DNA of 37,729 nucleotides from Escherichia coli (lineage in GTDB: Bacteria > Pseudomonadota > Gammaproteobacteria > Enterobacterales > Enterobacteriaceae), in assembly GCF_003334405.1 (NCBI RefSeq), contig NZ_QOWM01000026.1; one strand, given 5' to 3'. This document shows, in pieces, positions 20,121 through 23,100 of the stretch (within the stretch, counting starts at the first letter, position 1; every line of letters starts with the position of its first letter). The notes beneath the pieces are model-generated. The model was not told where the DNA came from and did not search any database. It saw only the letters and a program-made list of their open reading frames with translations. Made by a program: the position numbers and the translations under genes.

Positions 20121-23100
20121 TTACGCCTTCTCGATGTTGACTAAGAACGCTTTATATTCCGGCGTTTGCGAGTTTGCATCACCGACATTCGGCGTCAGAG
20201 TGTTAGCGATATAACCTTTACGCGCGACACCCTCAAAGCCCCAGTGGATTGGAATACCCACCGTTTCAACCTGCTGACCATTTACATTCAGCGGTTTCAG
20301 ACGACGCGTTACCACAGCCACCGCGCGGATAAAGCCACGCTTGCTGGAGACAGTGACACGATCGCCATTATTAATGCCTTTCGCCGCCGCCAGCGTTTCG
20401 CTGATTTCCACAAACTGTTCCGGCTGAGCAATTGCGTTGAGCAATGCGTGCTTGGTCCAGGTGTGGAAGTGCTCGGTCAGACGATAGGTCGTACCCACAT
20501 ACGGGAACTGCTCTTTTTTACCCATCCGCAGCGCGTCTTGTTCATACAGACGAACAACCGGGTTAGACACCACGTTCGGATGCAGCGGGTTAGTGCCCAG
20601 CGGCGTTTCAATCGGCTCGTAGTGTTCCGGGAACGGACCTTCCGCCATTTTGTTGATGGCAAACAGGCGTCCCATCCCTTCCGGCTGCATGATAAACGGC
20701 CCGGTTGGCGTACCCGGTGCGGCATTGCCGAAGTCAGGAATATCGTTACCCGTCCACTTGCTGCCGTTCCACTGGATCAGCATCCGTTTCGGATCCCACG
20801 GTTTACCGTTGATATCCGCCGAAGCACGGTTGTACAGCACGCGACGGTTGAGCGGCCACGCCCAGGCCCATCCCAGCGTATTCCCCAGACCGGACGGGTC
20901 GGAGTTATCGCGGTTAGCCATCTGGTTGCCCTGCTCTGTCCAGCTACCGGTGTAGATCCAGCAAGAAGATGCGGTTGTACCGTCATCACGCAGATGCGCA
21001 AAGCTACTCAGCAACTGACCTTTCTTCGCAATAAGCACGCCATTAGCGTCATAGAGATCTTCCAGCGCGTAGCCGTTGTTCTCTTTAGCCACTTCGTCAG
21101 ATTGCGGTTCGTGCGGCTGCTTGTAGTTCCAGCTCATCTTCATCAGCGGTTCTACGCCTTTACCACCTTCGGACTGGTACAGCTCGCGCAGATGATGGTA
21201 GATACCCGCCAGAATTTCACCGTCGTTACGCGCTTCGCCCGGCGCGTCCTGACCTTTCCAGTGCCACTGCAACCAGCGACCGGAGTTAGCGATAGAACCA
21301 TCTTCTTCAGCAAAGCAGGTCGAAGGCAGACGGAATACTTCAGTCTGAATAGACGCCGGATCGACATCGTTCGACTCACCGTGGTTCTGCCAGAAGGTAG
21401 AGGTTTCAGTCACCAGCGGATCGATAACCACCATGTACTTCAGCTTGCTCAGGCAGCTCACCACTTTGTTTTTGTCCGGGAAGGACGCAACCGGGTTAAA
21501 GCCCTGGCAGAAATAACCGGTGACTTTGCCTTCATCCATCATGTTGAAATACTTGATGACGTCGTAGGTCTGGTCCCACTTCGGCAGCCAGTCATAGCCC
21601 CAGTTGTTCTCTTTCTGCGCGGCATCGCCATAGAAAGATTTCATCAGGCTAACGAAGAACTTCGGATAGTTGCTCCAGTAGTTCACCTGATCAGCCAGCG
21701 TCGCTTTCGGCGTGTTCGCTTCCAGATACGACTGCAAATCAACCTGTTTTTCTGACGGCAGCGTCAGATAACCTGGCAGGCTGGTAGAGAGCAGGCCTAA
21801 GTCAGTCAAGCCCTGAATGTTGGAGTGACCACGCAATGCGTTCACGCCGCCACCGGCCATACCCATGTTACCGAGCAGCAACTGGATCATCGCCATAGTA
21901 CGGATGTTCTGCGCACCCACAGTGTGCTGCGTCCAGCCCAGCGCGTACAGGAAGGTGGTTGTGCGATCCGGTGCGCTGGTGGAGGCCAGCACTTCACACA
22001 CTTTCAGGAAGTCGGCTTTTGGCGTACCGCAGATGTTTTCAACGACGTCCGGCGTGTAGCGGGAAACGTGCTCTTTCAGCAGGTTCCACACACAGCGCGG
22101 ATGAGTCAGTGTTTCATCGCGTTTCGCATAGCCGTTTTCATCGAACTGATAGTTCCAGGACGATTTATCGTATTGACGTTTTTCAGCGTCGTAGCCGCTG
22201 AACAGACCGTCTTCGAAAGCAAAATCATCACGCACCAGCAGGCTGGCGTTGGTGTAATGCTTAACGTATTCGGCGTTGATTTTGTTGTTTTCGATCAGAT
22301 AGCGCAAAACGCCAGACAGGAACGTAATGTCCGTACCGGAACGAATAGGCGCGTAAATATCCGCCACAGAAGCGGTACGCGTAAAACGGGGATCGACAAC
22401 GATCAAGGTTGCGTCGTTGTTGTTTTTCGCTTCCATCGCCCAGCGGAAACCGACGGGATGCGCTTCAGCAGCGTTACCGCCCATCACCATCACGACGTTA
22501 GCGTTTTTGATATCCACCCAGTGGTTGGTCATCGCACCGCGACCAAATGTTGGAGCAAGACTTGCTACCGTTGGTCCGTGTCAGACGCGCGCCTGGTTGT
22601 CTACCGCCAGCATCCCGAGGGAGCGGGCAAATTTCTGGGTCAGCATCCCGGTTTCGTTGCTGGCACCGGAGGCACACAGCATACCGGTAGAAAGCCAACG
22701 GTTTACCGTTACGCCCTGCTCGTTCTTTTCAATAAAGTTAGCGTCACGGTCAGCTTTCATCAGCTTCGCAATACGGGAGAATGCTTCTTCCCAGCTAATG
22801 CGCTGCCATTTGTCAGAACCTGGCGCACGATATTCCGGGTAGCGCAGACGGTTTTCACTGTTGACGTAATCCAGCAAACCGGCCCCTTTCGGGCACAGCG
22901 CACCACGGCTTACCGGATGATCCGGGTCACCTTCAATGTGATAAATCGCTTCTCTGGCGTTTTTTGCGCCATCACCCAGGCTATACATCAATAGCCCGCA
23001 ACCTACGGAACAGTATGTGCAGGTGTTACGGATCTCTTTAGCGCGTAATAATTTGTAGTTTCGCGCCTGAGCCAGTGCTTGCTTCGGGGCAAAGCCCAAT

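Follow-up and report, generated by a model that had tools for sequence, protein, structure and literature searches.

An in-frame TGA in Escherichia coli fdnG matches the known selenocysteine codon of formate dehydrogenase-N and is followed directly by a SECIS element

Knowledge of selenocysteine (Sec) 196 of FdnG and of its selenocysteine insertion sequence (SECIS) dates from 1991, and 1KQF is the solved structure of the protein. Evidence that the opal codon of fdnG encodes selenocysteine was presented by Berg et al. (1991), as cited in PMC13188914. Here we describe the corresponding locus in a stretch of Escherichia coli DNA of 37,729 nucleotides (contig NZ_QOWM01000026.1 of assembly GCF_003334405.1, the whole of which is called the window below), where the open reading frame (ORF) of fdnG on the minus strand is interrupted by a TGA at codon 196. 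This TGA is almost certainly the Sec codon of an intact fdnG with the SECIS lying directly 3' of it. The basis for this in the sequence is a single UGA, the identity of the gene as fdnG, the alignment with the Sec residue, the SECIS match, the positions of the determinants and the selection on base-pairing, and no evidence contradicting Sec recoding was found in the analysis. The feature is already known, being the same locus as Sec196 and the SECIS of K-12 fdnG and no variant of it, and there is nothing biologically new in the Sec codon and SECIS of fdnG as such.

Among the described systems, fdnG of E. coli K-12 (b1474) has an identical 59-nt element in the same position, with the same operon and flanking genes, and the whole gene of K-12 MG1655 differs by 2 nucleotides and 1 amino acid (F342 in the window, L342 in K-12). 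The 59 nucleotides are also identical in fdoG (formate dehydrogenase-O), which belongs to the paralogous operon fdoGHI-fdhE elsewhere on the E. coli chromosome; Sec is likewise at codon 196, the Rfam family SECIS_3 is matched with the same 84.3 bits as in the window, and the codon two before the UGA is CGT instead of the CGC of the window fdnG, a synonymous difference. The third E. coli system, fdhF (formate dehydrogenase-H), has Sec at codon 140 of a cytoplasmic enzyme of 715 amino acids. It shares with fdnG the UGAC, 15 of the first 17 nucleotides, the 11-nt spacer and the GG/CC base of the upper stem, and the bulged U17 and G23-U24 are equally far from the UGA in both genes. However, the upper hairpin has 17 nucleotides with a GGUC tetraloop in fdhF and 18 nucleotides in fdnG, with a GUC triloop closed by an A-U pair (or an AGUCU pentaloop), and the two genes also have different lower stems and encode different peptides. 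K-12 fdhF is matched by SECIS_2 (RF01988) at 87.1 bits and by SECIS_3 at only 35.8 bits, against a gathering threshold of 63 for the latter. An earlier note on this DNA, made from the letters alone, had likened the hairpin after the TGA to that of fdhF. The likeness holds for the spacer, the U17 bulge and G23-U24 and fails for the family, as membership in SECIS_2, the fdhF type, was rejected at 28.8 bits in the window against a gathering threshold of 70. By analogy, the fdnG element would work like the fdhF SECIS, yet it belongs to the Rfam family of fdnG and fdoG.

More distant are the periplasmic Sec-containing formate dehydrogenases of Desulfovibrio (1H0H, 6SDR and others), which are homologous over their full length with E about 1e-273 to 1e-289. 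In the alignment, the UGA of the window is matched by a non-standard residue, X, both in the D. gigas enzyme (1H0H) and in the D. vulgaris 'selenocysteine-containing' formate dehydrogenase chains, and this residue stands in the motif QAR(V/I)-U-H. Unlike in fdnG, the peptide after Sec is HSATVAAL or HSPTVPAL, and because of this difference the sequence of the Desulfovibrio SECIS would have to differ as well.

The coding features of fdnG in the window are as follows.

20121..23168, minus strand: fdnG, alpha subunit of formate dehydrogenase-N, a single coding sequence (CDS) with predicted Sec at residue 196 (from translation, 100% identity to annotated genes, TIGR01553 and 1KQF)

22581..22583, minus strand: UGA codon 196, predicted to be recoded as selenocysteine, with C as the next nucleotide giving UGAC (from sequence and structure alignment)

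22533..22580, minus strand: 16 sense codons, HGPTVASLAPTFGRGA, protein-coding and SECIS-forming at once (matching 1KQF residues 197-212 one for one)

On translation, the frame 23168..20121 on the minus strand has 1016 codons, that is, 1015 residues and a TAA stop, and besides this terminal TAA the only stop within it is the TGA of codon 196 (22583..22581, minus strand). In the ORF list for 19000-24500 the gene appears as two minus-strand ORFs, 22581..23168 (195 amino acids) and 20121..22532 (803 amino acids), which agree in frame, (23168-22532) mod 3 being 0. The 48 nucleotides that lead from the TGA to the ATG at 22532 (22580..22533, minus strand) make up 16 open in-frame sense codons, left uncalled because the ORF lister restarts at the first ATG, GTG or TTG. 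The gap between the two ORFs thus consists of one stop codon and a listing artefact. The earlier note had described two same-frame minus-strand ORFs split by a single TGA at 22581-22583 inside one CDS of 1015 codons. Its coordinates and frame are borne out, translation gives the 1015 residues followed by TAA, and the discontinuity of frame that it named as evidence to the contrary is absent, as both ORFs lie in one frame.

The same listing could be produced by two genes, one for a 195-amino-acid N-terminal protein (Tat signal and 4Fe-4S domain) and the other for an 803-amino-acid protein starting from the ATG at 22532, and this ATG indeed opens the second listed ORF. However, the 16 intervening codons are in frame, free of stops and align with 1KQF, which is a single chain of 1015 residues. 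In addition, the ATG is the conserved Met of a GRGAMTNHW motif in all homologues among the matches listed in our scan (see below), and the synonymous sites in the gap covary as expected for an RNA helix and not for a ribosome-binding site. The probability of two separate genes is vanishingly small.

Judged from its sequence, the gene of the window is intact E. coli fdnG, which codes for the catalytic subunit, with molybdopterin, of formate dehydrogenase-N, the respiratory enzyme that is induced by nitrate. Over its 3048 nt it shows 100% identity to the annotated fdnG of E. coli NCTC9038 and other strains (NZ_LR134082.1 and other genomes), in which the RefSeq annotation gives one CDS, 'formate dehydrogenase-N subunit alpha', and the whole window is collinear with the NCTC9038 chromosome at 99.9% identity. 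The gene is present in all 5426 complete E. coli genomes, and the second place found in most of them is the paralogue fdoG. Protein searches against profiles and the PDB were run with Cys put in for the stop at position 196. The NCBIfam profile TIGR01553, 'formate dehydrogenase-N subunit alpha', matched residues 2-1014 with 1625 bits (cut-off 814.2) over profile positions 1-1009 of 1009, and the match runs as one stretch across the UGA. In the PDB, chain A of 1KQF/1KQG ('formate dehydrogenase, nitrate-inducible, major subunit', 1015 residues) was aligned from 1 to 1015. In the residue-level alignment the UGA falls opposite the non-standard residue X196 of 1KQF chain A with identical flanking residues, and residue 196 of FdnG is the Mo-ligand residue of the enzyme. 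The N-terminus, MDVSRRQFFKICAGG..., has by eye an S-R-R-x-F-F-K twin-arginine translocation (Tat) motif and is a predicted signal peptide.

Taken naively, the TGA breaks the frame and leaves the ORF track in two pieces, as would be seen if fdnG of the source strain were a pseudogene with a nonsense mutation and only a 195-residue fragment were made. Yet K-12 has the same TGA at the homologous codon of fdnG, fdoG and fdhF alike, and of the 5434 matching E. coli records, 5407 show an identity of 99% or more over the 121 nucleotides that surround the TGA, the region being found in 5426 of 5426 genomes. In solved structures the residue aligned with the TGA is Sec, a curated SECIS model has its match directly 3' of the TGA, and the same peptide context with open frames on both sides occurs in at least 120 matches from several phyla. 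The sequence downstream is without decay, one profile match covering residues 2-1014. We consider a pseudogene extremely unlikely, as did the earlier note, which had rejected it and had named the TGA as the known Sec codon of formate dehydrogenase-N; the alignment at the Sec position that it proposed as a check puts the UGA with X196 of 1KQF and shows the TGA to be homologous in the three K-12 genes.

An annotated copy of fdnG is also carried by a few E. coli plasmids (7-8 places, for example NZ_CP170379.1 127282-127392). The UGA/SECIS region of these plasmid copies is about 94.6% identical to its chromosomal counterpart.

The RNA element downstream of the TGA comprises the following parts, with U17, G23 and U24 counted from the U of the UGA.

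22528..22586, minus strand: bacterial SECIS, full match to Rfam SECIS_3 (RF01989), consisting of the codon before the UGA, the UGA and 53 nt downstream (covariance model)

22538..22578, minus strand: complete stem-loop with lower stem (59-mer positions 9-16 with 41-49, one bulge), internal loop and upper hairpin (minimum free energy, MFE, fold)

22552..22569, minus strand: upper hairpin, the putative minimal SelB-binding SECIS, GG-U(bulge)-AGCAA-GUC-UUGCU-CC (fold, and pairing in homologues)

22567, minus strand: bulged U, U17 (unpaired in the MFE and Rfam consensus structures)

22559..22561, minus strand: apical loop G23-U24-C25, or 5 nt, A-GUC-U, if the closing A-U pair opens (fold and SECIS_3 model)

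SECIS_3 was the sole Rfam match in the 37.7-kb window at gathering thresholds. It was found at 22586..22528 on the minus strand with 84.3 bits (gathering threshold 63, E = 8.4e-19) over model positions 1-59 of 59, and by this score the sequence and structure of the element are overwhelmingly non-random. Upstream of fdnG, the same scan, made at gathering thresholds only, gave no Rfam family in the window. As a separate observation, the 5' region of K-12 fdoG (L003 4794-5030, minus strand) scores 36.4 bits with the Rfam model of the FdoG1 5'-UTR thermometer, which falls short of the gathering threshold of 50.

The minimal E. coli SECIS, as given by Liu et al. (1998) according to PMC8659212, lies 11 nt from the UGA and has a bulged U17 and G23-U24 in the loop; U17 is described there as a contact of SelB, and G23 and U24 as essential. 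In the window, the upper hairpin begins at nucleotide 15 (U of the UGA being 1), that is, 11 nt past the UGA, with G15-G16 pairing with C31-C32, and the 11-nt spacer, the bulged U17 and G23-U24 are all found at these exact positions. The MFE fold has an asymmetric internal loop between the lower stem and the upper hairpin. The consensus of the bacterial SECIS (bSECIS) by Zhang and Gladyshev, as quoted in PMC13188914, is wider: an apical loop of 3-9 nt and an upper stem of 4-16 bp, a G at loop position 1 or 2 that is usually followed by G or U, a distance of 16-37 nt from the UGA to the apical loop, and an MFE of at most -7.5 kcal/mol. The window has the loop GUC of 3 nt (or 5 nt) and an upper stem of 5 + 2 bp around the U bulge. 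Its 5'-G-U-C-3' fits N1-G-[G|U]-N-N2 with N1 = A paired to N2 = U, the distance from the UGA to the loop is 19 nt (59-mer positions 7-25), and the 45 nt after the UGA fold at -13.8 kcal/mol.

Covariation among homologues gives independent weight to the pairing. One genome per species was scanned with the pattern TGACAYGGNCCNACNGTNGCNAGYCTNGCNCCNACNTTYGG, in which the peptide U-H-G-P-T-V-A-S-L-A-P-T-F-G is fixed and the third codon positions are free. At least 120 matches were obtained from Alpha-, Beta- and Gammaproteobacteria and from metagenome-assembled genomes (MAGs) of Nitrospirae, Planctomycetes and Desulfobulbaceae. The covariation set consists of the 64 distinct 59-mers among the matches listed, which are phylogenetically related sequences, and all results on homologues given here and below refer to the matches listed. 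The upper helix, positions 18-25 with 29-35, has standard pairs in 100% of the cells. At pair 24-30, which joins the third positions of Ala and Leu, A-U is found in 29 sequences, C-G in 22 and G-C in 13, and at pair 21-33, joining the third positions of Val and Ala, G-C is found in 40, A-U in 17, G-U in 6 and C-G in 1. At these two upper-stem pairs, 35 and 18 cells, respectively, have compensatory changes, all at synonymous sites. The free third position of Thr (ACN), whose partner is a fixed C, is G in 64 of 64, and the free third position of Ser (AGY), which is U24 of the loop, is U in 64 of 64. None of 500 shuffles reached the observed covariation or percentage paired, and sliding the 3' partners by 1-3 columns lowered the pairing from 90-93% to 25-53%. 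Selection at synonymous sites thus maintains the pairs of the upper stem. In the homologous loci, open frame extends from the TGA for a median of 211 codons in the upstream direction and 824 in the downstream direction, which excludes a nonsense lesion.

UGAC is a leaky context for termination. It is thus conceivable that near-cognate tRNA-Trp or Cys-tRNA(Sec) decodes the UGA, so that no selenocysteine is inserted, and that the hairpin merely slows the ribosome; besides the leaky context, this would be in line with the fact that the inserted residue cannot be read from the sequence alone. However, the specific determinants of SelB (U17, G23, U24 and the 11-nt spacing) go beyond what a merely stable hairpin would have, and at synonymous sites both U24 and the pairing of the stem have been preserved across phyla. 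The depositors of the structure also modelled a non-standard residue at 196, and Berg et al. (1991), as cited in PMC13188914, gave evidence for selenocysteine at the opal codon. We regard read-through independent of Sec as very unlikely, and Sec recoding remains the preferred reading of the UGA.

Although nothing contradicts Sec recoding, the evidence has limits. Compared to dinucleotide shuffles, the stability of the 59-mer is not significant (z = -0.77), being equalled in 39 of 200 shuffles; likewise, 10.8% of the in-frame 45-nt windows of fdnG fold as well as the 45-mer of the SECIS. The lower-stem register of the Rfam consensus fits the window sequence poorly. In the scan of homologues, which gave at least 120 stretches, the TGA and the first and second codon positions were set by the search pattern, and because they were fixed in it their invariance is by construction. 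Finally, the selABCD genes of the source strain lie outside the window. As a proxy for the source strain, the complete E. coli genomes can be taken: selB occurs in 5426 of 5426 and selC in 5425 of 5426, and selA adjoins selB.

The 45 nt that follow the UGA have an MFE of -13.8 kcal/mol and the 59-mer one of -17.4 kcal/mol, and for the 45-mer z was -2.0, with 3.5% of 1000 shuffles folding as well. The earlier note had proposed folding these 45 nt and had taken the absence of a stable hairpin as grounds for rejection. The hairpin is present, yet its stability proved uninformative as a test of this kind: stability alone does not discriminate, because the 59-mer has the z given above and about a tenth of the fdnG windows are equally stable. 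As a weak discriminator, hairpin stability was dropped as a criterion. The proof is carried by the match to the covariance model and by the covariation.

Lower helices of the SECIS have been treated as largely dispensable in studies of fdhF. Taken literally, the lower-stem register of the Rfam consensus has the non-standard pairs A12-G44 and A8-C48 in the window and was rejected at -7.2 kcal/mol. The E. coli element (22538-22578, minus strand) favours a register that lies one base away from the consensus (-13.8 vs -7.2 kcal/mol). Across the 64 distinct elements, the codons of Gly198 and Gly209 vary in step at their synonymous third positions. Elements with GGA...GGU (12A/45U, the E. coli state) favour the register with a one-base bulge, and those with GGC...GGC (12C/45C) favour the continuous Rfam register in 31 of 31 sequences. 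It is possible, if somewhat doubtful, that the lower SECIS helix is under selection in two alternative registers. The pattern may also arise if both Gly sites merely track genomic G+C content. If selection on two registers were true, lineages would keep the lower stem by switching register and not by simple compensatory pairs, and the two-register lower stem may be a minor point that is new.

In E. coli, earlier work has established SelB binding and Sec insertion both in fdnG (Berg et al. 1991, through PMC13188914) and in fdhF (PMC4513850), and the steps of the mechanism below are taken from the established E. coli system as described in PMC13188914, PMC4513850 and PMC8659212. By analogy, SelB carrying GTP and Sec-tRNA(Sec) (selC, anticodon UCA) would bind the upper hairpin, and the lower helix would be unwound as the ribosome nears. 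Once the UGA occupies the A site, the SelB complex, being tethered, would compete with release factor 2 and deliver Sec-tRNA(Sec), after which the ribosome would melt the hairpin and read it as His-Gly-Pro-Thr-Val-Ala-Ser-Leu-Ala-Pro-Thr-Phe-Gly-Arg-Gly. For the UGA of the window fdnG, the binding of SelB, the insertion of Sec and the competition with release factor 2 would thus be expected from established knowledge.

In practice, where a molybdopterin oxidoreductase gene appears as two ORFs of one frame divided by a TGA, Sec recoding is the reading to adopt, in preference to a pseudogene or an error of sequencing. As a clean positive control one can use fdnG, in which hairpin stability is a poor test and the covariance model together with covariation at synonymous sites is decisive.

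Two operon partners follow fdnG in the window.

19224..20108, minus strand: fdnH, Fe-S beta subunit (TIGR01582, 482 bits against a cut-off of 335; RefSeq annotation)

18578..19231, minus strand: fdnI, cytochrome b gamma subunit (NF007558, 487 bits against a cut-off of 339; RefSeq annotation)

The start of fdnH lies 13 nt past fdnG, and fdnI and fdnH overlap by 8 nt. The gene order is yddG-fdnG-fdnH-fdnI-yddM, with adhP also a neighbour, as on the E. coli chromosome.

Between the convergent ends of yddM (plus strand) and fdnI (minus strand), the window has two copies of a 34-nt palindromic hairpin (18344-18377 and 18522-18555), which are 82% identical and 178 nt apart; one of the copies is terminator-like. 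NCTC9038 has a single copy and is 178 nt shorter there, a pattern such as a recombinational deletion of the stretch between the copies would leave. Weak sub-threshold Rfam matches to naRNA4 and ES036 are found in K-12 with the same 178-nt spacing, and Tandem Repeats Finder, run on 17500-19500, found nothing to explain the 178-nt difference from NCTC9038.

Other differences from NCTC9038 concern disrupted genes. At 24541-25810 on the plus strand there is a yddL porin fragment (a 96-amino-acid ORF) and a leucine-rich-repeat gene in two overlapping ORFs (198 + 126 amino acids), both annotated as pseudogenes in NCTC9038; compared to that strain, the window has a 1-nt deletion in the leucine-rich-repeat gene at about 25449. 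The gene osmC (13691-14122, minus strand) is an intact ORF of 143 amino acids in the window and is annotated as frameshifted in the near-identical NCTC9038 record, the difference being one extra C at window position 14091. The right end of the window (37209-37729) runs into ydcC, an ISAs1-like ISEc5 transposase gene, and just past the position of the window end the reference strain (L002 4416-5552) carries a second, frameshifted ISAs1 transposase together with an RHS fragment.

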